The notes beneath the pieces are model-generated. The model saw nothing but the letters and a program-made list of their open reading frames with translations, had not been told where the DNA came from and did no database searches. From Deltaproteobacteria bacterium (lineage in GTDB: Bacteria > Desulfobacterota > GWC2-55-46), in assembly GCA_016234935.1 (NCBI GenBank), contig JACRNL010000011.1, forward strand, positions 129,472 through 193,471: a stretch of DNA of 64,000 nucleotides, in the 5' to 3' direction. Made by a program: the position numbers and the translations under genes. Positions within the stretch are counted from its first letter, which is position 1. The number at the start of each line of letters is the position of its first letter. Shown piece after piece: positions 5,985 through 44,300 of this stretch.

Positions 5985-6165
5985 CAAACTAAACCGGTGT
6001 GGTTGCACCTGTGCACGAACCTGCAGCGGCATTAAAGTTTTTTGGCCGCCTGCGGCGGAGCAAAGTTAAATGGTTGTATTTTGACTTTAGCCGTGCGCAG
6101 CACCTGCGGTGAGCAAAGTTTAAGGTGTATCATTTCAAACTTTAGCGTGCGCAGCACCTTTTTTG
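5985..6165. repeat. Composite intergenic repeat, copy A: three degenerate tandem units ending ctgcggNgagcaaagtt plus a terminal ttttttgaaaaaa palindrome
   Basis: Seen directly. Its reverse complement recurs at 44160-44300 (for example ggccgcctgcggcggagcaaag here versus ctttgccccgccgcaggcggcc there). Confidence 0.8.
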
Positions 6166-6189
6166 AAAAAAGATAAGCGGAGGGAGGAT

Positions 6190-6411
6190 ATGATCAAGAT
6201 ATTTTTGGGCATACTGCTCGGCATTATCGTTCTTACCGGATTTGTCTACTTCGGAGGGGCGAAGTATCTTAAGTCGCTGGGCACAAAGACCGAGGCGGCG
6301 GGGGAAAAGCTCGAAAAGGTGGAAAAGCAGCTGAAGGAGTCAACGAAGGACGTTAAAAAGTCGGTGGACATGACCGCTGAAAAGATGAAAAAGTACGTGC
6401 CGGGGAATTAG
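6190..6411 (+). CDS. Small membrane-anchored coiled-coil protein (YtxH/DUF948-like), 73 aa
   Basis: ATG at 6190 follows SD ggagggagg with a 5-nt spacer. The track ORF starts at an upstream TTG. One N-terminal TM helix, then a K/E-rich helix. Confidence 0.5.
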   Translation: MIKIFLGILLGIIVLTGFVYFGGAKYLKSLGTKTEAAGEKLEKVEKQLKESTKDVKKSVDMTAEKMKKYVPGN

Positions 6412-6420
6412 AAGGGCGCC

Positions 6421-7086
6421 TTACGGCAGCAGATCGTTTAGTTTTTGGAGCTGGAACGGGAAGGATAACGCATAAGGCTTCGTGTGGATATACAGGTCCG
6501 TTATCACAAGGTCGGCGGTTGTGAAATCTTTTGAGAGCGGGGGAAAGATAAGGAACTTCGAGGCAGTTTGCGAGGATTTTATTGTCTGCGTGTTGTCGTA
6601 GATGACCGATGAGAGCGCGCCAAGCTGCGCCTGCGCGCCGACGCTTTCCTTCACGAAGTCGTAGAAATCGGTGTAGTCAAGCGGCTTTTTGTAGTCGAGC
6701 GAATTCGTCGTAAGGGATGTGAGCGCGGGGTTAAAGGTTATATTTATTCTGTTTGAGAGGTTTTTTATGTCTAACTTCAAGAATATATAGCCCTTGGCAG
6801 CGAGTTCGTCTACTACGTCTATATATGTCGGCTCAATATTGTCCTGCGTGACGTGGCGTACCGTTATAACGACTTCCGCGTTTGTAAAGCTCCAGAAGCG
6901 GCCGTGGGGCTTGTAGCCCATCTTTTGCATCTCAGCGGTTTTTTCGCCCAGGATCGGGTAAAGCGCGGTAGACGCTTTTGGTGTCGCCGCGCATCCCGCG
7001 AGGATGATCATGAGGAGCGCCAGAAAAATCGGGCCCGCCGGGGAAGAGGGGAAGCCTTTAAGCCGATTTTTTAAAAAATATGCCAT
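6421..7086 (-). CDS. Putative lipoprotein
   Basis: Signal peptide with lipobox LMIILAGC when started at the internal Met (MAYFLKNRLKG...). No recognisable catalytic motif. Confidence 0.5.
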   Translation of the reverse strand: MAYFLKNRLKGFPSSPAGPIFLALLMIILAGCAATPKASTALYPILGEKTAEMQKMGYKPHGRFWSFTNAEVVITVRHVTQDNIEPTYIDVVDELAAKGYIFLKLDIKNLSNRINITFNPALTSLTTNSLDYKKPLDYTDFYDFVKESVGAQAQLGALSSVIYDNTQTIKSSQTASKFLIFPPLSKDFTTADLVITDLYIHTKPYALSFPFQLQKLNDLLP

Positions 7087-7169
7087 TTCAAGCCCGTACT
7101 CCACCGCCGGTGATTTAATCACTTTCGCTTCGCGAGGCCTTTATAATGTTCCTGATATGAGGACGCGGC

Positions 7170-7463
7170 TTAATAGCTATTGTAACGGGTCAGGGCCGTA
7201 AAGTCGTCGAACTCATTTCTGTATTCTTCCCATGTCACGGTTACCTTTTCCACCCGCGCAATTTCAGGGCCTATCCTGCACCATTGGATGAGCTTGTTTA
7301 CTTTTTCCTCGTCGCCCTCGATGACCGCCTCGACCGCTCCGTCGGGCCTGTTCTTGACAAAGCCGTAGACGCCGATTCTCCTGGCGGCCTCGACCGTATT
7401 CGCCCTGTAAAAAACACCCTGCACGAGACCTTCGATGATAAGGTGCGCCCGTACCGGTTTCAT
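7170..7463 (-). CDS. acyP: Acylphosphatase
   Basis: VRAHLIIEGLVQGVFYRANTVEAARRIGVYGFVKNRPDGAVEAVIEGDEEKVNKLIQWC matches the acylphosphatase fold signature (VQGVxFR...GxVxNxxDGsVe). Start placed at the internal Met (cat at 7461-7463). Confidence 0.8.
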   Translation of the reverse strand: MKPVRAHLIIEGLVQGVFYRANTVEAARRIGVYGFVKNRPDGAVEAVIEGDEEKVNKLIQWCRIGPEIARVEKVTVTWEEYRNEFDDFTALTRYNSY

Positions 7464-7555
7464 AGTGGAGAGACTAACATAAAATTCCATCGTTTGCAAT
7501 ATGCGCGGAGAGGTATTTATGTTATTATTGCCGGTGTAATAATGCGGGCATATCA

Positions 7556-8893: not shown

Positions 8894-9102
8894 CCGCGCC
8901 CCTGCAAGATTTCTTTGTTTTTCTGCGCTTTTTTGTAGTAGAATATTCAGGTTTATCGCTGAGGAAGGCGCCTGCGGATGTAAAAAGCGGCATGTTGCCT
9001 TTTAGAAGGTGATTGTTTGTAATGTGTGCGTGGCATTTATACTTTCATATGCGTTGCAGGCCGCGATAGACCGGCGCATTATCTAAAAAATCAGGAGCGT
9101 TC

Positions 9103-10131
9103 ATGTTAAGCGGCAAGACCATACTCATAACCGGCGGCACAGGGTCATTCGGCAAGAAGATGGTAGAGGTTATTTTGGCGCGCTACCGGCCTGAAAAACT
9201 CATAATCTTCAGCAGGGATGAATTGAAGCAATATGATATGTCGCAGAAGTGGAGCGCTGAGAAGTATCCCTGCATGCGTTATTTTTTAGGCGACGTGCGC
9301 GACAAGGACAGGCTCGTGCGCGCCTTTCACGGCGTTGATTATATAATACACGCGGCGGCGTTGAAGCAGGTGCCGGCGGCTGAATATAACCCCGCGGAGT
9401 TCATCAAGACCAACGTCAACGGCGCGATGAACGTCATTGACGCGGCAATAGACAGGAACGTGAAGAAGGTCGTAGCCCTTTCAACGGACAAGGCCTGCAA
9501 CCCCGCGAACCTCTACGGCGCGACGAAGCTCTGCTCGGATAAGCTCTTCCTTGCGGCCAGCGTCTACGGCGGGCAGGACGGCACCGTTTTCTCGGTCGTG
9601 CGCTACGGGAACGTAGTCGGCAGCCGCGGCTCCGTCATCCCGTTTTTCACAAAGGAAGCGGCTAAAGGCGTGCTGCCGATAACCGACGTCAGGATGACAC
9701 GCTTCTGGATTACCCTCGATCAGGCCGCTGACTTCGTCCTTAAGGCCCTTGCGCTCTCAAAGGGGAGCGAGGTATTCGTGCCCAAGATACCTTCAATGAA
9801 GATAACCGACCTTGCAAAGGCCATCGCCCCTGAATGTGAACACAAGATCGTAGGCATACGCCCGGGCGAAAAGATACACGAGACCCTTGTCGCGGAAGAC
9901 GAGGGCAGGAATACGGTCGAGTACAGGGAATGCTTCGTTGTCAGGCACAATTTTCTGCCTGGCGACCAGAAAAACGGCAAAAGGTGCGTCGAGGGGTTCA
10001 AATACACATCAGACAACAACACGCTCCATATCGGCATCGAAGAGCTTCGCCTCGTGCTCGCGCGCATGTCCGCTGAAGAGGGCGTGGCGGCAGGTAATCA
10101 CTGGCGCATGGAAGATTTAGCCCGCGGGTAG
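9103..10131 (+). CDS. pseB: UDP-N-acetylglucosamine 4,6-dehydratase (inverting) PseB
   Basis: MLSGKTILITGGTGSFGKK...SRDELKQ...YGATKLCSDKLF...VVRYGNVVGSRGSVIPFF...ITDVRMTRFWITLD. From memory, close to Helicobacter pylori FlaA1/PseB along its full length. Confidence 0.9.
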   Translation: MLSGKTILITGGTGSFGKKMVEVILARYRPEKLIIFSRDELKQYDMSQKWSAEKYPCMRYFLGDVRDKDRLVRAFHGVDYIIHAAALKQVPAAEYNPAEFIKTNVNGAMNVIDAAIDRNVKKVVALSTDKACNPANLYGATKLCSDKLFLAASVYGGQDGTVFSVVRYGNVVGSRGSVIPFFTKEAAKGVLPITDVRMTRFWITLDQAADFVLKALALSKGSEVFVPKIPSMKITDLAKAIAPECEHKIVGIRPGEKIHETLVAEDEGRNTVEYRECFVVRHNFLPGDQKNGKRCVEGFKYTSDNNTLHIGIEELRLVLARMSAEEGVAAGNHWRMEDLARG

Positions 10132-10146
10132 GTTTTTTTAAATCAA

Positions 10147-11361
10147 ATGCCAAAAGAAAAAAATTCCGGGTTCATACCATACGGCAGGCAGTGGATAGAT
10201 GAAGACGATATCCGCGCCGTGGCCCGGGCGCTGAGCTGCGATTATCTCACGCAGGGTCCCGGGGTGGAGCGGTTTGAAGAGGCCCTGGCCGGATATCTTG
10301 GCGCGAGGTTTGCCGTGGCGGTTTCAAGCGGCACCGCGGCGCTTCATTTAGCGTGCCTTGCCGTTGGAGTGAAAGACCGCCTTGAGGCAATAACGACCCC
10401 GATAACCTTTGCCGCAAGCGCGAACTCGGCCGTTTACTGCGGCGGAAAGCCGGTGTTTGCGGATATTGAGCCCCATACCTTTAATATTAATCCCGATGAG
10501 ATACGAAAGAAGATAACGGCGCGCGCGAAGGCGGTTATCCCCGTGCATTTCGCCGGGCTTGCCTGCGATATGGACGCCATCAGGGCCATCGCCGATGAGC
10601 GCGGCCTGACGGTCATTGAAGACGCCTGCCACGCGCTCGGCGCGGAGTATAAGGATTTAAAAGGCAAGTGGCATAAGGCCGGCTCTTGCGCCCATTCGGA
10701 CCTGTCTATCATGAGCTTCCATCCGGTAAAGCACATAACCACCGGAGAGGGCGGCGCGATACTCACAAACAGCCCGGAGCTTTATGAAAGGCTTATGCTC
10801 CTGAGGACGCACGGCATAACAAAGAAGCCGGATGCGTTTAAAAACAAGGCAATGGCCTTTGATGAAAACGGCGCGCCCAACCCCTGGTACTATGAGATGC
10901 AGGAGGCGGGGTTCAATTACAGGCTGACTGACCTGCAGTGCGCCCTGGGCATAAGCCAGCTTAAAAAGCTCGACGCCTTTGTCGCAAGAAGGCGGCGCAT
11001 AGCGGATATTTATAGCGCGGCCTTTAAGGGGATTGATCTTATAACGCCGCAGGCCGTGTCCGCAGGCAGGGTGTCGTCCTACCACCTCTACGCCGTGCAG
11101 ATTGATTTTAAGAGGCTCGGCAAAAGCCGGGCAAGAATTATGACGGAGCTTAAGGAAAAGGGCATAGGCACTCAGGTGCACTATATCCCCGTGCATTTAC
11201 AGCCCTTTTACAGGGAAAGGTTCGGATGCAAAAAGGGAGACTTCCCCGTGGCCGAGGCGTATTACGAAAAGGCCCTGAGCCTGCCCATGTACCCGAAGAT
11301 GACGGACGATGATGTGAGGCGGGTGGTCCAGGCTGTAACGGGCCTGCTAAAGGTTGCGTGA
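10147..11361 (+). CDS. pseC: UDP-4-amino-4,6-dideoxy-N-acetyl-beta-L-altrosamine transaminase PseC (DegT/DnrJ/EryC1 family)
   Basis: 404 aa PLP aminotransferase fold. DegT-type motifs, SFHPVKHITTGEGG lysine region. Confidence 0.85.
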   Translation: MPKEKNSGFIPYGRQWIDEDDIRAVARALSCDYLTQGPGVERFEEALAGYLGARFAVAVSSGTAALHLACLAVGVKDRLEAITTPITFAASANSAVYCGGKPVFADIEPHTFNINPDEIRKKITARAKAVIPVHFAGLACDMDAIRAIADERGLTVIEDACHALGAEYKDLKGKWHKAGSCAHSDLSIMSFHPVKHITTGEGGAILTNSPELYERLMLLRTHGITKKPDAFKNKAMAFDENGAPNPWYYEMQEAGFNYRLTDLQCALGISQLKKLDAFVARRRRIADIYSAAFKGIDLITPQAVSAGRVSSYHLYAVQIDFKRLGKSRARIMTELKEKGIGTQVHYIPVHLQPFYRERFGCKKGDFPVAEAYYEKALSLPMYPKMTDDDVRRVVQAVTGLLKVA

Positions 11362-12891
11362 ATGTCAAGGAAAGTCCTGCTCATAAGGCCGCGTAACGTT
11401 TATAATTACAATAATTATCCCGCGCTTAATCTTATATGCGTCGGTTCCAAGCTTAAGTCCGCCGGATATGACGTCAAGATAATCAATTGCGCCTTTGAAA
11501 ACGACCCGTTAAAGGCCATAAGCGCTGAACTGAAGGATTCTCTGTTAGCGGGCATATCGTTTCTTACCTCCGAAGTGCCTGATGCCTATGCCGTAATGAA
11601 GCACATAAAAGACAGCTCCGATTTGCCGGTGGTCGCGGGGGGCTGGCACACGACCCTTTTCCCTGAACAGATGGAGGCGTGTCAATACGTTGATTACGTG
11701 GTGGCGGGAGAGGGCGAAGAGCATATACTGAAGATAGCCGACCTGCTGGCAAAAGGAGAGCGGCCCGGGCAGAAGATATTCCCCAAAAGGATGCTCGATA
11801 TGGATACCCTGCCCATGCCGGATTATGACATCGACGGCAATATCGGCAGGTTCATGGACAGCTATCTTACGGACAAGCTCTCTGAATATGTAAGGCAGCC
11901 CATGCGGTGGCTTCCTTACGAATCAAGCCGCGGTTGCCCGTCGCATTGCACCTTCTGCATAAACGTTGTGGCAGGCAATACGCGTTACAGAAAAAAGAGC
12001 GCGGCGAAGGTTATCTCGGAGATAGAGTATATAGTAAACAAACACAAGCTTACGCACCTGAAGATAATAGACGACAACTTCTTTGTTGACATAAAGTGGG
12101 TGCGTGAGATATGCGCCGGAATAATCGACAGAGGGTTCGACATAACATGGGACGGCGAGTGCCGCTGCGACTATTTTAACGATCGTCATCTTAACGACGA
12201 AACGCTGGATCTTTGCAGAAGGTCGGGTCTTGTTCAGCTTACGCTTGGGATAGAGTCCGGCTCCGAGCATACCCTGAAGCTAATGAAAAAGGGCATAACG
12301 CCGGAGCAGGCTGAAAACGCCGTAAGGAGCTGCAACGCGCATAAGATAATAGCCAGATCGTCTTTCATACTTGAGATACCCGGAGAGACGATAGACGATA
12401 TTAAATACACGATACGGCTCATAAACAGGCTGAGAAGATACCCGTATTTCACCTGCGGGGTTGGCACCTTCAGGCCGTATCCGAAGTGCGAGCTTACCGA
12501 GAACCTCCTGAAGGAAGGCTACCTCAAGGAGCCGCGGAGTTTTGAGGAGTGGAAAATGCAGAACGTTATAGACATGTACACCTCGGCGGAATATCAAAGG
12601 CCGTGGCAGGCGAACGCTGATTATTCCGAGAGCGCGGCCTATTATCTGAACATGGAATCAAGCGTGAGGCTCGGGAACCACCAAATAGACAGGGCGCGTG
12701 ACAGGGTTATTAATAATATGTTCATATCCGTCGCGAAGCTGAGAAATAAATTGGCGTACTATGGGCTCCCTTTTGAAAAAATACTCTATAAAAGATTTCT
12801 GAAGAATTTTTACAGCAGGAGGCAGGAGATGGAAAAGAGCGGCTCGTATCCGCTGTCACGCGGTCTTGAAAAGGACGGGAAAAGGGCATGA
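11362..12891 (+). CDS. Cobalamin (B12)-binding radical SAM protein, class B
   Basis: N-terminal B12-binding Rossmann-like domain. CxxxCxxC radical SAM motif CPSHCTFC. 509 aa. Confidence 0.8.
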   Translation: MSRKVLLIRPRNVYNYNNYPALNLICVGSKLKSAGYDVKIINCAFENDPLKAISAELKDSLLAGISFLTSEVPDAYAVMKHIKDSSDLPVVAGGWHTTLFPEQMEACQYVDYVVAGEGEEHILKIADLLAKGERPGQKIFPKRMLDMDTLPMPDYDIDGNIGRFMDSYLTDKLSEYVRQPMRWLPYESSRGCPSHCTFCINVVAGNTRYRKKSAAKVISEIEYIVNKHKLTHLKIIDDNFFVDIKWVREICAGIIDRGFDITWDGECRCDYFNDRHLNDETLDLCRRSGLVQLTLGIESGSEHTLKLMKKGITPEQAENAVRSCNAHKIIARSSFILEIPGETIDDIKYTIRLINRLRRYPYFTCGVGTFRPYPKCELTENLLKEGYLKEPRSFEEWKMQNVIDMYTSAEYQRPWQANADYSESAAYYLNMESSVRLGNHQIDRARDRVINNMFISVAKLRNKLAYYGLPFEKILYKRFLKNFYSRRQEMEKSGSYPLSRGLEKDGKRA

Positions 12892-13871
12892 GGGTTTTAG
12901 TCGCAGGCACAGGGTCAATCGGCACAAGGCACATAAAGAACCTCGTCGAGCTCGGTCATGAGGTGTATGCTACTGACATAAATCAGGAGTGCCTCAAGGC
13001 CGCCGCGCCGCTTGTGAAGGGGACATTCGTGTCGCTTGACGGCGCGCTTAAGGTCAGGCCTGAAGCGGCTTTTATCTGCACATTCAGCTCAGATCATATA
13101 GAACCCGCGCGCAAATGCGCGGAGGCTGGCTGCCATATTTTTATAGAAAAGCCGCTCTCGATGGATTTAAACGGCGTGGACGAGCTGATAGATACGGCTG
13201 ACAGTAAGGGCCTTGTCACGATGGCCGGCTGCAACATGAGATTCCACCCTGCGGTGGCGCATATTAAAGGCATCCTTGACAACGAAGCCGCTTTTGCTAA
13301 AAAGCTCTGGGCAAACCTTGAGTTCGGCTATTATCTGCCGTTTGCCAAGAAGGACTACGAGTCTTCTTATATGGCAAGAAGGAGTCTGGGCGGCAATATC
13401 ATCTTCGATGTGATACATGAGCTTGATTACGCCGTTTGGTTCTTTGGAAAGCCGGTTGAGGTCTTTTGCAGCAAGGGCATACTGTCGGGCTTGAAAATAG
13501 ACACTGAAGACTACGCGGATATGATGATAAGGTTTAAGTCAGGCGCGGTTTGCGTGATACACATGGATTATCTGCAGCACGGCTACTCAAGAAGGTGCAA
13601 GGTCGTCGCCGAAGGCGGGACGGTCGTCTGGGACTTCGCGCACGGCGATATCGGCGCCGTGACCGTAAATAGCAGGCAATGGGACTGGAAGGAAATGAAA
13701 CTTGAAGCTCTCTATAACCGCATGTACGTGGATGAGGCGCAATACTTCATGGACTGCGTTTCATCCGCCAAGGATACGTTCAATCCCTTAAAGGGTGCGC
13801 TTTCCGTTCTAAAGCTCGCGCTCGCGGCGAATATATCCTGCCATACAAACAAGTGGGAGATGGTGTCATGA
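12888..13871 (+). CDS. Gfo/Idh/MocA family NAD(P)-dependent oxidoreductase
   Basis: MRVLVAGTGSIGTRHIKNL Rossmann N-terminus. 327 aa. ATGA overlap with the upstream gene. Confidence 0.8.
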   Translation: MRVLVAGTGSIGTRHIKNLVELGHEVYATDINQECLKAAAPLVKGTFVSLDGALKVRPEAAFICTFSSDHIEPARKCAEAGCHIFIEKPLSMDLNGVDELIDTADSKGLVTMAGCNMRFHPAVAHIKGILDNEAAFAKKLWANLEFGYYLPFAKKDYESSYMARRSLGGNIIFDVIHELDYAVWFFGKPVEVFCSKGILSGLKIDTEDYADMMIRFKSGAVCVIHMDYLQHGYSRRCKVVAEGGTVVWDFAHGDIGAVTVNSRQWDWKEMKLEALYNRMYVDEAQYFMDCVSSAKDTFNPLKGALSVLKLALAANISCHTNKWEMVS

Positions 13872-14737
13872 GCAAGGTTATCGGGGTAATTACGGCGAGA
13901 ATGGCGTCAACGCGCCTTCCGGGCAAGGTCTTGCTGAAGATGGCTGGTAAATCCATATTCGCGCATCATGCCGAGAGGATGCAGAACGTTAAGGGCCTTG
14001 ACGGGGTTTTTCTGGCCACGTCGGAAGACCCTCTGAATAAGCCGCTTATCGCGGAGGCGGAGCAAATGGGCTGCGGGTGGTTTGCCGGGGCTGAGCAGGA
14101 TATAGTGGACAGGCACATAAAGCTGTGCGAAAGGGAAGGGGCCGACGCCTTTATACGTGTCACCTGCGATTCTCCCATATTCGACATCGGGAGCGCGTCA
14201 AGGTTCGTATCCGAGTTCAGGAAGGAGTACAGGGACCTGATCTATGTCTCCAACATGACGATGATTCAGGGATCTCTGTCCGAGCTGCTCTCTTATAAGG
14301 CCATGGTCCAGGTGCATAAGCAGTACAGGGGCGCGGGCATCTCAATGCCTATAAAGGAAAATATGGATAAGTATAAGACCCTCGGCATAGAGATAGACGC
14401 CGACCTGTGCAGGCCTGAGTACCGCATAACGATTGACGAAGCCGTTGACATTGAAATGATAGGCAAGATATACGAGGCGCTCTATAAGGGCAGGCCGCTT
14501 GACCTTCATGAAGTATATACCTGGCTGGATGACTACCCCATGGTAGCGAAGATGAACATGCATGTCGGCATAAAGGGGTGCGAGCAGCAGAGCGCCAATC
14601 TGACGGAGATGCCGGTCTATACCGTAGTGAAGTCCGGCAAAGGCTTCGTGATACTCGATGAGCAAAAGCGCATGGTCGCGCCGGAGGATTTTATGTCAAG
14701 GGTTAAGGATATTTTCCCGCAACTAAAACGGGGATGA
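13868..14737 (+). CDS. SpsF/FlmC-type cytidylyltransferase-like protein (glycan pathway)
   Basis: VIGVITARMASTRLPGKVLL is typical of the SpsF/NeuA-like cytidylyltransferase family. Start at ATG 13868 overlaps the upstream stop. Confidence 0.65.
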   Translation: MSKVIGVITARMASTRLPGKVLLKMAGKSIFAHHAERMQNVKGLDGVFLATSEDPLNKPLIAEAEQMGCGWFAGAEQDIVDRHIKLCEREGADAFIRVTCDSPIFDIGSASRFVSEFRKEYRDLIYVSNMTMIQGSLSELLSYKAMVQVHKQYRGAGISMPIKENMDKYKTLGIEIDADLCRPEYRITIDEAVDIEMIGKIYEALYKGRPLDLHEVYTWLDDYPMVAKMNMHVGIKGCEQQSANLTEMPVYTVVKSGKGFVILDEQKRMVAPEDFMSRVKDIFPQLKRG

Positions 14738-14738
14738 A

Positions 14739-16037
14739 TTGATGACCATGAAAGACCGTTATATCCGTTCAGAAGAGATGCATAAAAGGGCGTTAAAGGC
14801 AATCCCTCTGGGCACGCAGACCTTCAGCAAGAGCAGTACCCAGTATCCGTTCGGCGTCTCCCCTTATTTTATAAAAAAGGGCAGGGGCTCGCATGTGTGG
14901 GACGTTGACGGCAACGAGTATGTTGACTTTATCAATTCCCTTGCCGCCATAACGCTCGGCTACAACGACCCTGACGTCGACGCGGCCGTGAGGGCGCAGC
15001 TTGAAGAAGGCGTGATATTTTCCCTGCCGCACGAACTTGAGATAAAGGCCGCTGAAAAGGTCATAGAGATGGTTCCGTGCGCCGAGATGGTCAGGTTCGG
15101 CAAGAACGGCTCCGACGCAACGGCCGGGGCGATACGGGTCTCAAGGGCCTTTACGAAAAGGGACCATGTCGCCGTGTGCGGCTACCACGGCTGGCAGGAC
15201 TGGTACATCGGCTCAACCGCGCGAAATCTCGGCGTGCCAAAGGCCACGCGCGAGCTGACGCATACGTTTACTTACAATAATATTGATTCGCTCGATAAGA
15301 TATTCAAGGATTACCCTAACGATGTGGCCGCAGTAATCATGGAACCGATGAACGTTTTTGAGCCGGTTGACGGATTCCTTGAAAAGGCCGCGGAGCTTAC
15401 GCGAAGAAACAACGCGGTCTTCATATTCGACGAGACCATCACGGGCTTTCGCTACGCAAACGGCGGGGCCGGCGAATATTTTAACGTGAAGCCCGACCTT
15501 GCCACATTCGGCAAGGGGCTTGCCAACGGCTATCCCGTTTCCGCGGTGGCCGGAAGGGCCGATATAATGCGGTTCATGGAGGATGTATTTTTTTCATTCA
15601 CATTCGGCGGAGAGACATTGTCCCTTGCCGCCGCTCTTACGACCATGGAAAAGTTGCAGAGGGAGCCTGTCATAAAGACCATCTGGTCTCAGGGGGCGAA
15701 GATACTTGACGGCCTTACTCCCCTTATTAAAAAGCACGGGCTTGAAGATATTCTTTCGACAGCCGGCAAGCCCTGCTGGTCTTTTCTGGTATTCAAAGAC
15801 GCGAAAGACTATACCATGTGGGAATTAAAAACACTCTTTTTGCAGGAGATATTCGCGCGCGGCGTGCTTACGCTTACCACGCACAACATGAGCTACGCGC
15901 ATACCGATGAGGACATCGCAAAGCTCCTCAAGGCGTATGACGAGGTGTTCGGGATGATGAAAGAGGCCGTGGAGGAAAAGTCGCTCTTGAAACTACTGCG
16001 CACGGAGCCTCTGGCTGCGCTCTTTAAAGTGAGATGA
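14739..16037 (+). CDS. Class III (GSA-aminomutase-like) PLP-dependent aminotransferase
   Basis: 432 aa. FIFDETITGFR and AT-III fold. Common in flagellin and nonulosonate glycosylation islands. Confidence 0.8.
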   Translation: MMTMKDRYIRSEEMHKRALKAIPLGTQTFSKSSTQYPFGVSPYFIKKGRGSHVWDVDGNEYVDFINSLAAITLGYNDPDVDAAVRAQLEEGVIFSLPHELEIKAAEKVIEMVPCAEMVRFGKNGSDATAGAIRVSRAFTKRDHVAVCGYHGWQDWYIGSTARNLGVPKATRELTHTFTYNNIDSLDKIFKDYPNDVAAVIMEPMNVFEPVDGFLEKAAELTRRNNAVFIFDETITGFRYANGGAGEYFNVKPDLATFGKGLANGYPVSAVAGRADIMRFMEDVFFSFTFGGETLSLAAALTTMEKLQREPVIKTIWSQGAKILDGLTPLIKKHGLEDILSTAGKPCWSFLVFKDAKDYTMWELKTLFLQEIFARGVLTLTTHNMSYAHTDEDIAKLLKAYDEVFGMMKEAVEEKSLLKLLRTEPLAALFKVR

Positions 16038-17107
16038 AGGTAATCTTCAGGACGGACGCCTCCGTCGCAATCGGCTCCGGCCACGCAATGAGGTGTCTGA
16101 CCCTTGCGGCCGCGCTCCGTGAAAAAGGCGCGGAGGTGGTTTTTATATGCAGGGAGCTTAAGGGCAATCTCTGCGCCTTCATCGAGGAAAAGGGTTATCG
16201 CGTGAGAAGGCTTCCTGTGCATTCGGATTCGGCGTTGCAAAAGGGCCTGTATGCGCGCTGGCTCGGAGTGGATATTGAAACAGACGCGGCGGAGACAATG
16301 GCCGCGATAGAAAAGGAAGGACAGGTGCGCTGGCTGGTTATTGACAGCTATGCCATTGACAAAAGGTGGGAGGCCCGCATGAGGCCGTTTGTGTCCGGCA
16401 TCATGGTGATTGACGACCTTGCCGACCGCGAGCATGACTGCGACATACTGCTGAACCAGAACCTTTACGACGACATGGAGGAAAGATACGCGGGTAAGCT
16501 CCCTATTCACTGCAAAAGGCTTTTTGGCCCTGAATACGCGCTTATTCGGCCAGAGTTCAGGGACGCAAGATTAAAGCGCGGGCAAAGGCACGGCAGCATC
16601 AGGCGCATACTCGTATTTTACGGCGGAAGCGACCTCACAAACGAGACCTCGAAGGCGTTAAGGGCGATTCAATCATTGAATATGCCTCAAGTGGCCGTTG
16701 ACGTGGTCGTTGGCAAGGCAAACCCGAATAGGGAAGAGATTGAGAAGCACGCATTTGCCCTTCCCAATGCGGCATTTTACTGCCAGACTGACGATATGGC
16801 GGAGCTTATGTCAAGGGCAGACCTTGCCCTTGGGGCCGGTGGGTCTTCCTCGTGGGAGAGGTGCTGCATGGGCCTGCCGGCTATAGTGACTGTCGTAGCT
16901 GAAAATCAGGCCGCGATAGCGGAAAACCTCGCCAAAAGAGGGATAGTGATAAATCTCGGCTGGCACGCGGACGCGAAGGAAGCTGATATACAAAATGCCG
17001 TTAAAGCCCTTATGGATGACCGCCAAAAGGTTTTGGAGATGGGCAAAAGGGCGTTAGGGCTTGTTGACGGAGACGGGGCCCTTAGGGCTGTTAAGGAGAT
17101 GATTTAA
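16034..17107 (+). CDS. pseG: UDP-2,4-diacetamido-2,4,6-trideoxy-beta-L-altropyranose hydrolase PseG
   Basis: MKVIFRTDASVAIGSGHAMRCLTLA N-terminus and GT-B-like fold, 357 aa. Sits between the aminotransferase and pseH. Confidence 0.85.
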   Translation: MKVIFRTDASVAIGSGHAMRCLTLAAALREKGAEVVFICRELKGNLCAFIEEKGYRVRRLPVHSDSALQKGLYARWLGVDIETDAAETMAAIEKEGQVRWLVIDSYAIDKRWEARMRPFVSGIMVIDDLADREHDCDILLNQNLYDDMEERYAGKLPIHCKRLFGPEYALIRPEFRDARLKRGQRHGSIRRILVFYGGSDLTNETSKALRAIQSLNMPQVAVDVVVGKANPNREEIEKHAFALPNAAFYCQTDDMAELMSRADLALGAGGSSSWERCCMGLPAIVTVVAENQAAIAENLAKRGIVINLGWHADAKEADIQNAVKALMDDRQKVLEMGKRALGLVDGDGALRAVKEMI

Positions 17108-17122
17108 AGAGAGGTTTCTTGC

Positions 17123-17605
17123 GTGAAGACATCCTTTAATTCAAAAGATGCAGAGATAAATTTCAGATATATTGATGAGTCTGACGTAGAAGATCTGTTT
17201 GAATGGAGAAATCACCCTGAGGTAAGGAAAAACTCTTTTAATATGGCTCCGTTAATATTCAAGGAGCATGAAGAGTGGTTTAAGAGAAAAATTAAAAACT
17301 CTGACACAACCATATATATGGCGTGTTGTGGTAATGACAAAATAGGTTCAATCAGATTTGAAGACAATGGCGAAGTTGAAAAAGTAAGCGTGATGCTAAA
17401 CCCGAAATTTACCGGCAAAGGCCTTGGCTCCAAAATTATCAGGATTGGAACGTGGAAATTTATAAGCGAAAAGAAGCCGGGTAAACCTGTTGTCGCGGAA
17501 ATTAAAAGGGATAATATAGCTTCAATCAAGGCCTTTGAAAGAGCCGGCTTCAAGGAAAGCTTCATAACCTTTATTTTCGACGAAAAGCAGGGGAATTTTG
17601 AATAA
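17123..17605 (+). CDS. pseH: GNAT N-acetyltransferase PseH
   Basis: 160 aa GNAT between pseG and pseI. GTG start. Markedly AT-rich (about 36-40% GC by eye) relative to its neighbours. Confidence 0.75.
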   Translation: MKTSFNSKDAEINFRYIDESDVEDLFEWRNHPEVRKNSFNMAPLIFKEHEEWFKRKIKNSDTTIYMACCGNDKIGSIRFEDNGEVEKVSVMLNPKFTGKGLGSKIIRIGTWKFISEKKPGKPVVAEIKRDNIASIKAFERAGFKESFITFIFDEKQGNFE

Positions 17606-18671
17606 CTCGATAAAAATTGGAAATAGGTTGATAGGCAAGGCCCATCAGCCGTTTGTCATCGCCGAGATGTCGGGCAACCACAATCAGTCGCTTGACCGGG
17701 CGTTGGCCATTGTCGAGGCCGCGGCAAAGGCCGGGGCACACGCGGTTAAGCTTCAGACCTACACCGCCGACACCATGACGATAGAGGCCGATAAAGGGCG
17801 GGACGCCCTTCAAGGGCTATTCTATATTGACGACCCCAAAAGCCTCTGGAAGGGCAGGTCGCTTTACGAGCTTTACAAAGAGGCGTATACGCCGTGGGAA
17901 TGGCACGGGCCGATTTTCAAGCGCTGCCGTGAATTGGATATTATTGGCTTTAGCACGCCGTTTGACGAGACGGCGGTTGACTTTCTGGAAGGCTTGAGCG
18001 TTCCGGCATACAAGATAGCGTCGTTTGAAAATAATCATCTGCCGCTTATAAAAAAGGCCGCGGCAACGGGTAAGCCCCTTATTATTTCAACCGGCATGGC
18101 GACTGTGGCCGAGCTTGATGAGGCTGTTTTAACGGCGCGTAAGGCCGGATGCAAGGATATCATACTTTTAAAATGCACAAGCGCCTACCCCTCCGTGCCG
18201 GATGACACGAATCTCAAGACCATCAGACATCTCAAAAAACTCTTTGACGTGGAAGCCGGGCTTTCAGACCATACGCTCGGCGTCGGCGTGGCCGCCGCGG
18301 CAGTGGCCCTCGGCGCGACGGTCATTGAAAAGCATTTTACGCTTTCAAGGGCGGACCACGGCGTGGACTCTGTCTTTTCCATGGAGCCTGACGAGCTAAA
18401 GCTCCTTGTGGATGAGACTAAAAAGGCGTGGCTGGCCCTCGGCAAGGTCTCATACGGCCCGACGGAAAGGGAAAGGGCGTCGTTAAGATTCCGCCGTTCC
18501 GTCTACGTTGTGAAGGACGTGGCAATGGGCGGGAAGTTCACAACGGAAAATACAAGGATAATAAGGCCGGGTGACGGCCTTTCGCCAAAGTATTACGACG
18601 TGATAATCGGCAAGACGGCCTCGCGCCACATAAAAAAGGGCACGCCGATGAATTGGGAGATGGTTTTGTAG
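17598..18671 (+). CDS. pseI: Pseudaminic acid synthase PseI (NeuB family)
   Basis: QPFVIAEMSGNHNQSLDRAL... is a NeuB-type TIM barrel. C-terminal SAF/antifreeze-like domain. 357 aa. Confidence 0.9.
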   Translation: MNNSIKIGNRLIGKAHQPFVIAEMSGNHNQSLDRALAIVEAAAKAGAHAVKLQTYTADTMTIEADKGRDALQGLFYIDDPKSLWKGRSLYELYKEAYTPWEWHGPIFKRCRELDIIGFSTPFDETAVDFLEGLSVPAYKIASFENNHLPLIKKAAATGKPLIISTGMATVAELDEAVLTARKAGCKDIILLKCTSAYPSVPDDTNLKTIRHLKKLFDVEAGLSDHTLGVGVAAAAVALGATVIEKHFTLSRADHGVDSVFSMEPDELKLLVDETKKAWLALGKVSYGPTERERASLRFRRSVYVVKDVAMGGKFTTENTRIIRPGDGLSPKYYDVIIGKTASRHIKKGTPMNWEMVL

Positions 18672-18697
18672 CAGGTAAAATCTTCTATTGCGGGGGG

Positions 18698-19255: not shown

Positions 19256-19398
19256 CGCCAAAAACTTCCGCATGATAACCGGCGGTCTGAGTATTCAAAG
19301 GACACGATGGCACAAACAAGTTCGAGGCAGCTGGTCGGAGGCGCGTGCCATGGCCGCCGGTTTTGCAGATAAAAGGATTCAGGACTAAGGAATAGTCT

Positions 19399-20178: not shown

Positions 20179-20198
20179 GGATTCAGCGCGCATCTTTT

Positions 20199-28462: not shown

Positions 28463-28511
28463 CCCCTTAACCCCTTGAAGGGGCTGAGCCCCCTCAGGGG
28501 GTTAAGCCCCC
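28463..28511. repeat. Dispersed palindromic repeat family R1 (ccccttgaagggg / cccccTCAggggg units)
   Basis: Seen directly. Related copies at 33708-33734, 37877-37913 (inverted) and 58748-58788. Here followed by ggggggaag + T7, which is terminator-like. Confidence 0.85.
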
Positions 28512-28539
28512 TTTTACAAAGGGGGGAAGTTTTTTTATT

Positions 28540-28616: not shown

Positions 28617-28632
28617 GTAGGGAGGATTTACG

Positions 28633-29465: not shown

Positions 29466-30896
29466 TTGAAGATACTGTTTATTCTGCCGGACGTTGATTC
29501 GTTCCACAGGCTTAATATACACTTCGGGATAGCCACCCTTGCCGGGTTTCTAAAGGCCAACGGCTATAACGACATTAGATTTCTTGCGGTTACGAGCGTA
29601 GAGGACTATGCGCGCATAATACGCGAGGTGGAGGCGTATAAGCCCGATATCGTAGGGTTTACATCCGTTGAGACGCAGTTCAAGCATGTTATCGCCCTTT
29701 CAGAGAAGATAAAAGAGGCGCATAAATGCATCGTCGTGCTCGGCGGGGTCTTCATCACGCTATTTCCTGAGAGCGTCAAGGACGCAAAGGCCCTTGACGG
29801 GGCCTTTAAGGGCGAGAGCGAACAGGCGCTGCTTAATTTCGTCCGGGCCGTTGAAAATGGGGCGGATTACAGGCAGGTTAATAACTTCTGTTATTACGAT
29901 GAAAAGGAAGGCAGGGTCATCCAGAACAGGCTGTCGCCAATGGAGGACAACCTCGACCTTTTTGGAATACCCGACCGCGGGATATTCGATTTCCAGAGCG
30001 TCATCGACTCCTACGGCGGGGCCGCGCCATTCATGTTCAACCGCGGCTGTCCGTATAACTGCTCGTTTTGCTCCAACCACGCGCTGGCATCCGTCTACGG
30101 CAGGCTGAGCAACAAGACCAGGAGAAGGAGCGTTGACCTGTGCATAAAAGAGATAAAGGGCGTCACTTCGAGCTATAAGCTCGAAGTCATACATGTCTGG
30201 GACGATCTTTTCACATCGCACAGGAAGTGGATGCAGGAGTTCCTTGATAAATACAAAAAAGAGGTCGGGCTGCCTTTCATGTGCACGACGCGGTCAAACC
30301 TCTGCGATGAAGAGCTCTTTAAGGCCCTTAAAGACGGCGGCTGCTACAGGGTGCACATGAGTCTTGAGTCAGGCAACGACTTTGTAAGAAATAAGGTCAT
30401 GAGGAGAAATATCTCAAAGGCGCAGATAGAAAAGTCGTTCGGCCTTGCCCGTAAATACGGAATCGAGGTCAGCGCGTCTTCCATCATCGGTCTGCCGTTT
30501 GAGACCCCGGAAATGATAGATGAGACTATCGGCCTCCTGGGCTCGCTCAAGGTGGAAAGCTGCGGGGTGAATATCTTTCATCCGTATAAGGGTACGCACC
30601 TTTACAAGGTCTGCGAGGAATACGGGATGCTTGTTAAGGAGGATGAGATGCATGGCATCATGGAAAGAAGGGAGAGCATATTGAATCTCCCGCATGTAAG
30701 CAGGGAGAAGCTCAAGCATTACTTTGACAATTTCGAGATGTTGGTGAGGCAGAAGGAAGGCGCCCTGCCTTACCTTAAATGCAGGCTGAAGGCGACCGCG
30801 AAGAAGCTTCTCCCTGAGACCATACAGGGCGTGATAAGGAAGGCACGTAAAAAGAAAGGCAGAGTGCAGGACTTTCCGGACGGTCTTGAGGAATGA
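29466..30896 (+). CDS. Cobalamin (B12)-binding radical SAM protein, class B
   Basis: N-terminal B12-binding domain. CxxxCxxC motif CPYNCSFC. 476 aa. TTG start. Confidence 0.8.
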   Translation: MKILFILPDVDSFHRLNIHFGIATLAGFLKANGYNDIRFLAVTSVEDYARIIREVEAYKPDIVGFTSVETQFKHVIALSEKIKEAHKCIVVLGGVFITLFPESVKDAKALDGAFKGESEQALLNFVRAVENGADYRQVNNFCYYDEKEGRVIQNRLSPMEDNLDLFGIPDRGIFDFQSVIDSYGGAAPFMFNRGCPYNCSFCSNHALASVYGRLSNKTRRRSVDLCIKEIKGVTSSYKLEVIHVWDDLFTSHRKWMQEFLDKYKKEVGLPFMCTTRSNLCDEELFKALKDGGCYRVHMSLESGNDFVRNKVMRRNISKAQIEKSFGLARKYGIEVSASSIIGLPFETPEMIDETIGLLGSLKVESCGVNIFHPYKGTHLYKVCEEYGMLVKEDEMHGIMERRESILNLPHVSREKLKHYFDNFEMLVRQKEGALPYLKCRLKATAKKLLPETIQGVIRKARKKKGRVQDFPDGLEE

Positions 30897-30909
30897 TAGA
30901 AGGTATGGC

Positions 30910-32708: not shown

Positions 32709-32743
32709 TTTCAGGCCAGACCTTTGCCAGACATCCGAGGGAT

Positions 32744-33673: not shown

Positions 33674-33707
33674 CCCCTGTCAGCGGTGAAAAGCGTCATT
33701 ACAAAAT

Positions 33708-33734
33708 CCCCTTGAAGGGGCTGAGCCCCCTTAG
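33708..33734. repeat. Repeat family R1 copy (partial)
   Basis: ccccttgaaggggctgagcccccttag; compare 28463-28511. Confidence 0.8.
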
Positions 33735-33769
33735 CCCTCTTTTCCAAAGGTGGGAAATAAAAATATGAG

Positions 33770-36465: not shown

Positions 36466-36508
36466 GTCGTCTGTTAGTCTATGCCCGCCGCAGGCGGGAA
36501 TTAAATAT

Positions 36509-36538
36509 TTGCTAATTATGGCTGTAATAAGTATAATA
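36509..36538 (+). promoter_or_regulatory. Putative sigma70-type promoter (TTGCTA - 18 nt - TATAAT), preceded by GC hairpin cccgccgcaggcggg at 36484-36498
   Basis: Seen directly in the 187-bp spacer before the GT4 gene. Weak call. Confidence 0.35.
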
Positions 36539-36652
36539 TTTTGGCTTGAAAGGCTGCAAGCAGCGCGGTTTTTGAAGGAGTTTTCGCTGTTTTTTCCGCT
36601 TTGAGCCTGTTCTGATACGGCGGCACGCCGGATATCCGTCACCGGAATTGTT

Positions 36653-37825: not shown

Positions 37826-37876
37826 GCGGCCCCCGCTTAGGGCACGCGAGGGCAGGAACGGTTTGATAGGACGAGG

Positions 37877-37913
37877 GTTGAACCCCCTGAGGGGGTTCGA
37901 CCCCTTCAAGGGG
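37877..37913. repeat. Repeat family R1 copy, inverted orientation
   Basis: aaccccctgagggggttcgaccccttcaagggg is the reverse complement of the 28463 element. Confidence 0.8.
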
Positions 37914-37918
37914 CATGA

Positions 37919-38929: not shown

Positions 38930-38999
38930 GCCGCGTTTCGCGGCATGATGATTTTTGTTTGCGAGGGCGTATGCTGATTTTAAGATGGAGGGCAGGGCT

Positions 39000-40620: not shown

Positions 40621-40654
40621 ACCCCGGTGGACAGTAATCAGGAGGAGAGAGCGC

Positions 40655-41458: not shown

Positions 41459-41904
41459 TAGACGGCGTTAAGATAACTCCATTAAAGCAGATACCGGATG
41501 AGCGCGGGCGGATAATGCACATGCTCCGCGCCGACGCGCCGCACTTCGTCCGGTTCGGCGAGATATATTTTTCATCCGTGTATCCAGGGGCTATAAAGGG
41601 ATGGCATCTGCATAAACTCATGACGATAAATTACGCGGTTCCCCACGGCAATATTAAATTCGTTCTTTATGACGGCCGCAAGGACAGTCCCACCAAAGGC
41701 CGGCTGCAGGAGATATTCCTCGGGCCGGACAATTACAACCTCGTCACAGTGCCTCCGCTTATCTGGAACGGGTACAAGGGGATAGGCCTTCAACCGGCCA
41801 TCGTCGCGAACTGCGCGAGCCTCGCGCACGACCCTGAGGAGATGGACAGGCTCGACCCGTTTGACCCGCTTATTCCTTACGACTGGGAGATAAAGCACAG
41901 ATGA
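41455..41904 (+). CDS. RmlC-like cupin, sugar-nucleotide 3,5-epimerase family
   Basis: 149 aa cupin ...GEIYFSSVYPGAIKGWHLHK.... ATGA overlap with rfbF. Confidence 0.75.
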   Translation: MIDGVKITPLKQIPDERGRIMHMLRADAPHFVRFGEIYFSSVYPGAIKGWHLHKLMTINYAVPHGNIKFVLYDGRKDSPTKGRLQEIFLGPDNYNLVTVPPLIWNGYKGIGLQPAIVANCASLAHDPEEMDRLDPFDPLIPYDWEIKHR

Positions 41905-42869
41905 CGCGCGAGGTCCTCATCACCGGGGGCCTCGGCTATGCGGGCGGCCGCATCGCCCGCTTCCTTGCCGGGCGGCCCGATATGACGCTTCGCCTCGGCA
42001 CGCGCCTTCGGCATGAGGCCGCGCCGGAGTGGCTTAAAAACGGCCGCGTCGTCCGGATGGACTTTGAATCGCCGGACTCGCTGGCAGGCGCCTTGGCCGG
42101 GGTGAATTGCGTGATTCATCTTGCGGCCATGAACGAGTTGGACAGCGCCGCAAACCCCGAAGGCGCGCTGATTGTAAACGGCCTGTATTCCCTAAAACTC
42201 CTGAACGCGGCAATGCGCGCGGGCGCTGAGAGGTTTATTTATTTTTCAACGGGGCATGTCTACGGCAGCCCGCTTGAAGGCAGGATAACCGAAGACAGCG
42301 TTACGCGGCCCGTTCACCCCTACGCCATAACGCACAGGGTAAGCGAGGATTTTGTCCTTGCGGCCCATGACCGGAAAAAGCTCGTCGGCGTGGTTTTAAG
42401 GCTCACAAACGGCTTCGGCGCGCCGGAAAGGGCCGACGTCAACCGATGGACGCTGCTGGTCAATGACCTGTGCAGGCAGGCCGTGACAACCGGCGCTCTT
42501 GTTCTTCGCTCCTCCGGCATCCAATACCGGGACTTCATCACGCTTGAAGACGTCGCAAGGGCCGCCGGTCATTTCGCGGCCCTTCCAGCCGAGGCCTGCG
42601 GCAAAGGCCTTTTCAACCTCGGCGGCCAGCGCTCCATGACCATCCTTGAGATGACTGAGCGCATTAGCGCAAGGTGCCAGGCTGTCCTCGGTTTTAGGCC
42701 GCGCATCGTCCGGCCCGAAGCCGCCGCCCTTGAGGACGGCGCGGCAAGGCCGCTTGATTTTTGCATAGACAGGCTGAAGGCGACCGGCTTTACCCTTACC
42801 GGCGATATAGACGCGGAGATAGACGCGACCCTTTGCCTTTGCAAAAAAGCATTCGGGCAGGGCGCGTGA
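41901..42869 (+). CDS. NAD-dependent epimerase/dehydratase family protein (atypical catalytic region)
   Basis: VLITGGLGYAGGRIA Rossmann motif, 322 aa. The YxxxK appears replaced by YAITHR. Confidence 0.65.
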   Translation: MTREVLITGGLGYAGGRIARFLAGRPDMTLRLGTRLRHEAAPEWLKNGRVVRMDFESPDSLAGALAGVNCVIHLAAMNELDSAANPEGALIVNGLYSLKLLNAAMRAGAERFIYFSTGHVYGSPLEGRITEDSVTRPVHPYAITHRVSEDFVLAAHDRKKLVGVVLRLTNGFGAPERADVNRWTLLVNDLCRQAVTTGALVLRSSGIQYRDFITLEDVARAAGHFAALPAEACGKGLFNLGGQRSMTILEMTERISARCQAVLGFRPRIVRPEAAALEDGAARPLDFCIDRLKATGFTLTGDIDAEIDATLCLCKKAFGQGA

Positions 42870-43819
42870 TGAAGGCCGTGAACTCAGGCGGCCCGCCGCC
42901 GTTCGTTACGGTAATCGTCACGACCTACAACCGCGCGAAACTCCTTTCAGAGACCATCTCTTCAATACTCAATCAGAGTTTTGCGGATTTTGAGCTTATA
43001 ATTGTTGACAATATGTCCGAAGACGCCACCCAAGGGTATGTCACGGGCCTTAACGACCGGCGTATAAGGTTTTTTAAGAACCCGAATAACGGGATCATCG
43101 CGGTCAACCGGAACTTCGGCATAAAAAGGGCGAGGGGCAAATACATCGCCTTTTGCGACGACGACGACCTGTGGTTCCCGGATAAGCTCAAGACACAGGT
43201 TGAGTTCATGGAGTCGAATCCGGACGTGGGGCTGACCTTCAGCAACGCCGAGACATTTGGAGACGGCGCCACAGGCAGGGCCATTTACGCCAAAGGCGAG
43301 AGCGAATCGGTGAAGGATTTTAATTCGCTTTTGAGGGGAAATAAAATTGCCGCCTTCACCGTTATGGCCGCAAAGAACTGTCTTGACGATGTTGGTCTTT
43401 TTGACGAGAGCCCGGAGCTTAAATCCATCGAGGATTACGACCTGTGGCTGAGGGTTGCCCGTAAATACGCCCTTGCCTGCATGCCGCAAATGCTCGGCAG
43501 ATACCGCGTGCATTCTGCAAGGACGAGCGGAGACGATGTCTTTGAGAAAAAGAAGCTTCTGCGGCTGGTGGAAAAATTCAAAAAGAGCGGTCTTGCCGGC
43601 AGGTGCGAGGCTCGCATGATGGAGTCGCACGTTCATTGGATGATAGGCAATTCAGTTCTGTTGAGTGGGGCAAACGGGGACGCAGCCTTCCGGGCACACT
43701 ACCGCCGCGCATTGTCGCTTTCGCTTAACGTAAGGACATTGCTAAGTTTTATGCTTACACTCGCGCCTACCGGAGTTGCGGCCGGCATATTCAGGTTTAT
43801 TGGAAGAGCCAGGGTCTAA
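42869..43819 (+). CDS. Family 2 glycosyltransferase (GT-A)
   Basis: VTVIVTTYNRAKLL...DDDD (D-x-D). Start at ATG 42869, overlapping the upstream stop (TGATG). The Arg-rich upstream extension is rejected. Confidence 0.8.
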   Translation: MKAVNSGGPPPFVTVIVTTYNRAKLLSETISSILNQSFADFELIIVDNMSEDATQGYVTGLNDRRIRFFKNPNNGIIAVNRNFGIKRARGKYIAFCDDDDLWFPDKLKTQVEFMESNPDVGLTFSNAETFGDGATGRAIYAKGESESVKDFNSLLRGNKIAAFTVMAAKNCLDDVGLFDESPELKSIEDYDLWLRVARKYALACMPQMLGRYRVHSARTSGDDVFEKKKLLRLVEKFKKSGLAGRCEARMMESHVHWMIGNSVLLSGANGDAAFRAHYRRALSLSLNVRTLLSFMLTLAPTGVAAGIFRFIGRARV

Positions 43820-43868
43820 CGCGGGCAACGCAATGGTTAAGGCTCGAAGGGCGTCATGCCCTCGAAGG

Positions 43869-44093
43869 CTAAAACCGTGAAGCTGTTTTTTTCAGAGCCG
43901 GCCTTGCCGCCGCTGTTGGCTTATCCATCTTCGCCGCCGCTTTCGGCTTATCTATCTTACCGGACGTTTGTCCGTATCTTGCCGCCACGATCTTTTCGGC
44001 GTTAAGCCAGTTCTCAAGTTCGTTGCCTGGCACACAGCCGTTTTGTTCGTAAAGCTCATACGCGACCTTCGCTATTTCATCCTGCACGTCCAT
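43869..44093 (-). CDS. Small DUF2934-like protein, 74 aa
   Basis: EIAKVAYELYEQNG...ENWLNAEKIV pattern. Convergent with the glycan operon. Confidence 0.5.
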   Translation of the reverse strand: MDVQDEIAKVAYELYEQNGCVPGNELENWLNAEKIVAARYGQTSGKIDKPKAAAKMDKPTAAARPALKKTASRF

Positions 44094-44159
44094 AATTGCC
44101 TCCCGTAAAAATTTGATACGATAAAGTATAGCAGAGATTTCGGATTTGTTTAGGGGCCC

Positions 44160-44300
44160 GCTTACCTTTTTTGAAAAAAAAGGCGCTGTGCACGGCTAAA
44201 GGTGCTGGCGCACGGCTAAAGCGTGAATGTAATCCTTTAGCTTTGCTCACCGCAGGTGCTTTGCCCCGCCGCAGGCGGCCAAAAAACTTTAATTATAGCG
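44160..44300. repeat. Composite intergenic repeat, copy B (inverted relative to 5985-6165)
   Basis: ggtgctggcgcacggctaaa..ctttgctcaccgcaggtgc..ctttgccccgccgcaggcggcc is the reverse complement of the copy-A units. Shares the ttttttgaaaaaa end. Confidence 0.8.

Follow-up and report, generated by a model that had tools for sequence, protein, structure and literature searches.

Two similar non-coding repeats that lie in opposite orientation on either side of a large glycan locus raise the question of whether the 38-kb segment between them can be inverted, was acquired as a unit, or is bracketed by chance. The repeats, termed copies A and B, are found in a 64,000-nt stretch of a Deltaproteobacteria bacterium (the window; contig JACRNL010000011.1 of assembly GCA_016234935.1, positions 129,472 to 193,471), where copy A follows an rsmI-like gene and copy B follows a macB-like gene. 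A first-pass annotation had proposed that they mediate inversion or mark the boundaries of an acquired segment, with the alternative that they belong to a dispersed terminator-like family and coincidentally sit here. The latter is borne out by copies at unrelated loci, in varied orientations, and by presence or absence of the element at orthologous sites. Copies A and B very probably belong to a lineage-specific family of interspersed repeats that are small, modular and non-coding, and their bracketing of the glycan locus is, with the same high probability, coincidental.

The inverted pair itself exists and is far beyond chance. Its arms, located by a repeat-finder run together with pairwise alignment and reading of both regions, comprise 35 nt at 6031-6065 and 44259-44293 (97% identity, 34 of 35 bases the same), 41 nt at 6058-6098 and 44208-44248 (78% identity) and 36 nt at 6090-6125 and 44234-44269 (83% identity), and the inverted copies share ~80% identity across ~140 nt. 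Each of three sub-motifs (18-25 nt) is present exactly twice in the window, once in A and once in B, against 0.00-0.03 occurrences expected from dinucleotide-preserving shuffles. As first described, the T-run/A-run ends of both copies face inward, and between them lie an open reading frame (ORF) for a 73-residue membrane protein, a lipoprotein gene, acyP, trmFO, the glycan genes (9103-43819) and a DUF2934 gene. The proposed limits required correction. Copy A, formerly placed at 5985-6165, occupies 6031-6178 on the plus strand, between the stop of rsmI (5947) and the ATG of the 73-residue ORF (6190); the sequence at 5948-6030 has no counterpart in copy B, and an extension to 5985 was rejected because this sequence resembles neither the unit nor the consensus, with 421-465 of 2000 shuffles scoring as well. 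Copy B, on the minus strand between the stop of macB (44334) and the ATG of the DUF2934 gene (44093), retains its limit at 44160, while its other end moves from 44300 to 44293. Their mutual inversion arises from the neighbouring genes: each copy is in sense with those that flank it, and the two sets are on opposite strands.

The canonical element is ~97 nt long and consists of a 5' module, ATTAAAGTTTTTTGGCCGCCTGCGGCGG, a single hairpin unit (a GCAAAG-stem, a variable loop and a stem-CTTTAGCCGTGCGCAGCACC half) and a 3' module with the plan of a T-run, one base, an A-run and GGTAAGC. Copy A contains two full units, in the order of the 28-nt 5' module (6031-6058), hairpin unit 1 (6059-6104), a TGCGGTG linker (6105-6111), hairpin unit 2 (6112-6158) and the 3' module TTTTTTGAAAAAAGATAAGC (6159-6178), all on the plus strand, and the resemblance of unit 1 to unit 2 reaches a score attained by 0 of 2000 shuffles. 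Copy B, read on the minus strand, begins with an identical 5' module (44293-44266), which is followed by a truncated unit (44265-44255), a linker (44254-44248), a full hairpin unit (44247-44201), a 20-nt partial tandem duplicate (44200-44182; detected by Tandem Repeats Finder as period 20 x 2.2 at 44179-44221) and the 3' module TTTTTTTTCAAAAAAGGTAAGC (44181-44160). The internal organisation, earlier considered the same in both, is similar but not identical. Across the family the number of units ranges from 0 (the short variant at locus L018) through 1 (loci L011, L016 and L009) and ~1.5 (copy B) to 2 (copy A), and the size of the element ranges from 97 to 148 nt. The sole long reading frame of copy A is closed by a TAA just upstream (6033-6035) and has no start codon, on which grounds its derivation from a decayed lipoprotein gene was rejected.

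Further members were sought by a metagenome scan with a 22-mer from the 5' module, and a covariance model, R1, was constructed from six aligned versions, with copies A and B each spliced to one unit and the insert of the L009 copy removed. This model assigns 85.3 bits to copy A and 52.5 bits to copy B. Outside the window, locus L011 carries a clean one-unit copy of ~97 nt at 1005-912 (112 bits), locus L016 another at 3425-3330 (107.3 bits over 3329-3428), and locus L009 a one-unit copy at 62-385 whose loop bears a ~230-nt nested palindromic insertion. Locus L012 retains the 5' module only, and the hairpin-less short variant of L018 scores 30 bits. The flanks of the L009 and L011 copies have nothing in common with the window. 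Within the window, the R1 scan returned the two copies and one doubtful match, a possible degenerate hairpin-less relative at 58677-58727 on the plus strand (CTTAAAGTTTTTTG...GCGCTGCAC.TTTTT...AAGATA), which lies beside tRNA-Cys and scores weakly (11.8 bits, E 1.6); a further 61 kb of loci, of which 56 kb belong to unrelated organisms, gave no match when scanned. The relatives retrieved by TrmFO, RsmI and MacB protein searches are uncultured Deltaproteobacteria, with RsmI identities of 93, 90, 85, 81, 73 and 62%. The relative at 81% derives from the same metagenome (Ga0315281) as L009 and L011, and L011 also bears a second repeat family of the window, links that tie the copies at both loci to the window lineage.

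The family appears to be undescribed. Rfam, searched at gathering and permissive thresholds, returned only one tRNA and sub-threshold chance matches (mir-87 and Hsp90_CRE), and the repeat had no match in a plasmid collection (distant BLASTN) or in viral contigs (18-mer search); a literature text search with three sequence strings of the repeat found no occurrence. Eight single matches to the 19-mer GCACCTGCGGTGAGCAAAG in a genome collection were discarded as chance, as they fall in unrelated metagenome-assembled genomes and similarity ends at 19-24 nt, and a metagenome match at locus L010, located inside a lipoprotein signal peptide (..FLAACGG), was likewise set aside as chance.

Filled and empty orthologous sites are found among close relatives at the rsmI/small-ORF and acyP/trmFO spacers. 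At the first of these, L024-26 show a 4-nt overlap of rsmI and the small ORF, and the two genes stand 15 nt apart in L014 and 36 nt apart in L017, an arrangement that suggests ancestral operon partners. The same spacer measures 242 nt in the window, copy A included, and is occupied by other, mutually unrelated sequences in L016/L019 and in L018 (150 nt in L016 and 136 nt in L018). BLAST homology between the window and L016, L017, L018 and L019 ends at the rsmI stop (5945-5951) and resumes at 6177-6178 in the three contigs that extend far enough. Taken with the near-empty junctions of the relatives, these breakpoints identify copy A as a lineage-specific filling of a former operon junction. The alternative fillings are also hairpin-rich, the same one occurring at L016 1826-1963 and L019 1163-1250 and a different one at L018 2776-2911, so that the rsmI/small-ORF junction is a hot spot of independent insertions.

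At the second site, the divergent spacer between acyP and trmFO, the window is empty (7504-7507), as is the outgroup L014, whereas L016, a 90% relative, has 146 additional nt that include its one-unit copy. In L017, an 85% relative, there is just a 13-nt scar, ATTAAAGTTTTTT, fused to the native flank, and in L013 the site looks filled and the contig ends there. The third site lies downstream of macB, where the contig of L020 (a 95% MacB relative) terminates in ATTAAAGTTT, 10 nt into copy B, which indicates that copy B is common to L020. That the contigs of L020 and L013 stop at or just before the element is expected of a multi-copy repeat in a short-read assembly. Fragments resembling the 3' module (AAAAAAGGGAAGCGG and AAGGAAAGGAAATCGG) are present just upstream of full copies at L020 1553-1586, L016 3471-3425 and L013 1-35, and suggest that elements or their remnants pile up adjacently.

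In the copies collected, the family is dispersed and modular, and is gained, lost and remodelled in the intergenic spacers of close relatives. It would best be understood as a non-autonomous mobile element, active now or recently and presumably moved in trans, with the duplication and deletion of units arising later by slippage or recombination. At 97-148 nt (< ~400 bp) and without coding capacity, the element agrees on both counts with a classical transposable element of the miniature inverted-repeat type (MITE). Several points weigh against the reading as a mobile family. The terminal inverted repeats amount to just the T-run, the 5' end TTAAAGTTTTTTG agreeing by eye with the reverse complement of the 3' end, CTTACCTTTTTTG, at ~9 of 13 positions, and target-site duplication is not visible in the flanks of the five copies; a possible GCGT duplication at the L016 insertion is ambiguous, as 47 extra nt came along. 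"MITE-like", as for BOX elements, is therefore the maximum claim. The collected material comprises just five full copies and a few fragments, and the assignment of L009 and L011 to a relative is indirect. The predicted folding is not more stable than that of shuffled sequence (z -0.5 to -1.6), and neither copy in the window was flagged by a simple terminator scan.

In the consensus fold, base-pairing joins the 5' module (GGCCGCCTGCGG..) to the unit's 3' half (..CCGTGCGCAGCACC), and an A/T-rich inner stem, AAAGTTAA / TTAACTTT, encloses a variable loop of 11-16 nt. The consensus ends in ...GCAGCACC followed directly by a run of T6-T8, in outline like a Rho-independent terminator but with a long and bulged stem whose top is A/T-rich. 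The T-run can also pair with the A-run that comes next. Among the six sequences, 92% of cells pair, changes on both sides are seen in four of the eight inner-stem pairs, and the covariation score exceeds those of all 500 shuffles and all slid controls. There is accordingly moderate support, from a small sample and a partly hand-spliced alignment, for a hairpin conserved with compensatory change.

The position of the element with respect to genes is varied. Copies A and B are in sense orientation downstream of a gene, the L016 copy occupies a divergent promoter region, upstream of acyP, and the L011 and L009 copies are antisense; a sense position at the 3' end of a transcription unit is a clean fit for copy B alone among the five. 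In three of the five copies (A, B and L016) a gene begins 11-66 nt beyond the 3' module, and in B and L016 the A-run is ~10-15 nt upstream of a -35-like hexamer. In the case of copy B, a sigma-70-like site (TAAACA-16-TATACT at 44152-44125, with TG before the second hexamer) stands between the element and the DUF2934 gene. Two other identities were considered and rejected: a small RNA gene or unit with its own promoter, as the flanks upstream of the copies are not conserved, TATAAT precedes copy B only and the spacing, judged by eye, does not suit a sigma-54 motif; and an integron attC-like site, whose core motifs are not matched, with no integrase among the ORFs tested.

Where it is transcribed in the sense direction, the long hairpin with its U-tract may act at most as a leaky attenuator or as a stabiliser of the mRNA 3' end. 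Since copy A is situated inside a former rsmI/small-ORF operon, full termination by this copy probably does not occur. Such transcriptional effects, namely leaky attenuation and the placement of an A/T tract upstream of a promoter in B and L016, would be secondary to mobility. A bolder view, in which a recently active family carries a cassette of hairpin, U-tract and A-tract that rewires transcription wherever it lands, is on balance unlikely. Were it to hold, the 73-residue ORF would be uncoupled from rsmI at copy A, an upstream A/T tract would be placed before the promoters of acyP and the DUF2934 gene, and gain and loss among relatives of 85-95% identity would constitute regulatory variation and not neutral junk.

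It is rather unlikely, too, that the family is kept for a host function, whether as an attenuator, an mRNA 3'-end stabiliser or a donor of A/T tracts upstream of promoters, a proposal that overlaps with the mobile-element reading. The compensatory changes in the hairpin speak for such a function, as do the T6-T8 run directly after the stem, two outer-stem G-U pairs that would mismatch on the opposite strand, and the proximity of 3' modules to gene starts and of A-runs to -35-like hexamers; BOX modules, moreover, are reported to alter the expression of downstream genes (PMC3049150). Set against these, the orientation relative to genes is inconsistent, with two of the five copies antisense, and close relatives manage without the element at orthologous sites. 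The folding energies are no better than those of shuffles, Rfam offers no match even at permissive thresholds, and, with upstream flanks not conserved, no promoter belonging to the element is evident.

Homologous recombination between copies A and B, which would invert the 38-kb segment and generate structural polymorphism of the glycan locus, is very improbable. The 34 of 35 identical bases and the ~80% identity over ~140 nt are near the minimum for RecA-dependent exchange, and an exchange would keep the junction genes co-directional, each copy being in sense with the genes that flank it. Yet the adjacency of rsmI and the 73-residue ORF is collinear in the contigs of eight relatives (RsmI 62-93% identical), and in L020 the element begins after macB; of the two possible orientations, these contigs show only the parental junctions, at A in the eight relatives and at B in L020. 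Three loci with a 77% MacB homologue (L021-23) were discarded as a guide to the right-hand junction, since the lineage they represent is more distant and its genes downstream of macB differ. Across the whole window, both copies and the segment between them included, GC skew stays positive, with no change of sign at either copy, and no Pfam match to recombinase, integrase, invertase or transposase families was obtained among the ~50 window ORFs tested. As the repeat is present at other loci, the pairing of A with B is not special. As far as the data reach, further copies occur in differing orientations and no structural polymorphism is seen, the outcome that the first-pass annotation had itself named as telling against a role in inversion or as a boundary, and that role is not supported.

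The left-hand side of the segment bears on its supposed acquisition as well. The order of the 73-residue ORF, lipoprotein gene, acyP and trmFO is ancestral, being kept in a relative with 62-67% identical proteins and no glycan locus after trmFO, and the divergence of L013, the 93% relative, from the window sets in only at ~9038, ~145 nt after trmFO (window 8894-9102 compared with L013 1424-1600). The variable glycan region therefore begins 2.9 kb to the right of copy A, and the 3' end of trmFO is the left edge of a hypervariable region. The first gene of the glycan locus encodes a PseB-like dehydratase in the window and a GT4 glycosyltransferase in L013, with TrmFO 93% identical between the two. 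That the repeats delimit an island or composite element, horizontally acquired and carrying the glycan locus, is hardly credible, for although the G+C content is lower over ~11-36 kb (0.49-0.53) than in the flanks (0.55-0.59) and glycan gene content differs between the window and its 93% relative, the change in composition coincides with neither copy, the bracket includes four genes in the order seen where no glycan locus exists, divergence from ~9038 and not 6031 contradicts the left side, neither integrase nor transposase is among the ORFs tested, and islands are normally bounded by direct, not inverted, repeats.

The rsmI-like 16S rRNA methyltransferase gene (5099-5947, plus strand; Pfam TP_methylase and RsmI_C) is upstream of copy A on the same strand, and the downstream neighbour (6190-6411, plus strand) encodes the 73-residue protein with an N-terminal membrane helix. 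It is followed by the lipoprotein gene, recognised by its LAGC lipobox and located between the small ORF and acyP (7170-7463, minus strand), which is divergent from trmFO. At the opposite end, the macB-like ABC permease gene (44334-45563, minus strand; Pfam) is upstream of copy B on the same strand, is the final gene of an OEP-HlyD-ABC-MacB operon and encodes a product 100% identical to MBI5888787.1, while the DUF2934 gene (43869-44093, minus strand) is the downstream neighbour. Between them, the glycan genes (9103-43819) form a long same-strand run of nonulosonic-acid and polysaccharide functions. The start of this locus (9103-18671) resembles a nonulosonic-acid pathway of the pseudaminic or legionaminic type, with a Polysacc_synt_2 dehydratase, a DegT aminotransferase, a CMP-sugar cytidylyltransferase and a NeuB synthase, and two B12-binding radical SAM genes (11362-12891 and 29466-30896) suggest an unusual sugar modification. 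Beyond the efflux operon, on its right-hand side, lie a PapD/usher pilus pair (51210-54398) and a heme-copper cytochrome oxidase cluster of COX1, COX3 and COX2 (55344-58524), followed by multihaem cytochrome c genes (59691-60494 and 62289-63041); the heme-copper oxidase was unexpected for a lineage labelled Deltaproteobacteria.

At least three other short repeat families occupy spacers of this lineage. The second family consists of paired G/C hairpins (CCCCTTGAAGGGG plus CCCCCT[C/G]AGGGGG) and occurs in the window at 28471-28515, 33708-33734, 37875-37914 and 58747-58778, and in L011 at ~775-815; three of these copies are in internal intergenic gaps of the glycan locus, the one at 37875 with the order of its hairpins reversed. 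A third family of ~46 nt (…CCCTGCCCTCCCCC.TCAAGGGGGAGGAGATAAGGAAGTGGTCATC) forms an inverted pair in the window (49697-49742 and 58935-58980) and is found at 2931-2972 in L016, the 90% relative, between the lipoprotein and acyP genes, a position from which it is absent in the window. A palindromic unit of the GTCATTCCCGA...TCGGGAATGAC type lies at ~51055-51175 of the window, upstream of the chaperone-usher pilus operon, and a related ~230-nt palindrome is the one nested in the loop of the L009 copy (L009 100-260), which implies that the repeat families insert into one another.

A 38-kb glycan island that flips or was imported is thus unsupported and gives way to an ordinary account, in which several short hairpin repeat families with fast turnover fill the intergenic spacers of the lineage. 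These repeats break its short-read assemblies, and their filled and empty sites are markers by which close strains may be told apart. The family of copies A and B also adds a BOX-like modular architecture to a phylum in which few such elements are documented.

Several known repeat classes share individual features with the family. The REP/BIME/REPIN sequences are likewise mosaics of palindromic units and linkers, with conserved stems and a capacity for transcript stabilisation or attenuation (PMC3049150), but REP units are G+C-rich palindromes of 20-40 nt associated with a RAYT transposase gene, whereas in the unit described here the inner stem is A/T-rich and the loop, of 11-16 nt, is variable. 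SPRITE elements of Streptococcus pneumoniae are dispersed and intergenic, and share a long duplex and U-rich tract resembling an oversized Rho-independent terminator (PMC3049150); they are enriched downstream of convergent genes, in contrast to the few copies found here in mixed contexts (among them an ancestral operon and a divergent promoter region), and lack the modularity and the T-run followed by a complementary A-run. The ERIC, Correia and Chunjie elements agree in size (~100-230 bp), imperfect palindromic fold, intergenic location and filled or empty orthologous sites, although, unlike the present repeat, they possess clear terminal inverted repeats, of 21-26 bp for example, and duplicate their target sites (TA, or 9 bp). 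Chunjie, from Geobacter, has inserted into operons without destroying them (PMC3184786), a further point of agreement.

The closest architecture is that of BOX, compared here by its described plan; homology in sequence is unlikely given the host phylum. BOX modules measure 59, 45 and 50 nt, and those of the present element, in a host of a different phylum, are shorter at 28, ~46 and ~20 nt. A further difference is that the partner of the 5' module in the fold is here the unit's 3' half and not the 3' module, and no candidate mobilising insertion sequence is known. The plan itself is the same, since the BOX elements of S. pneumoniae and S. suis (boxA-boxB(n)-boxC) are also built from a fixed 5' module, zero to several units and a fixed 3' module (PMC3049150, PMC3184786). 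In both, stem-loops are predicted, the internal unit folds largely alone, and copies are found near the ends or starts of genes (PMC3049150, PMC3184786). BOX elements, too, are regarded as mobile but non-autonomous (PMC3049150, PMC3184786).

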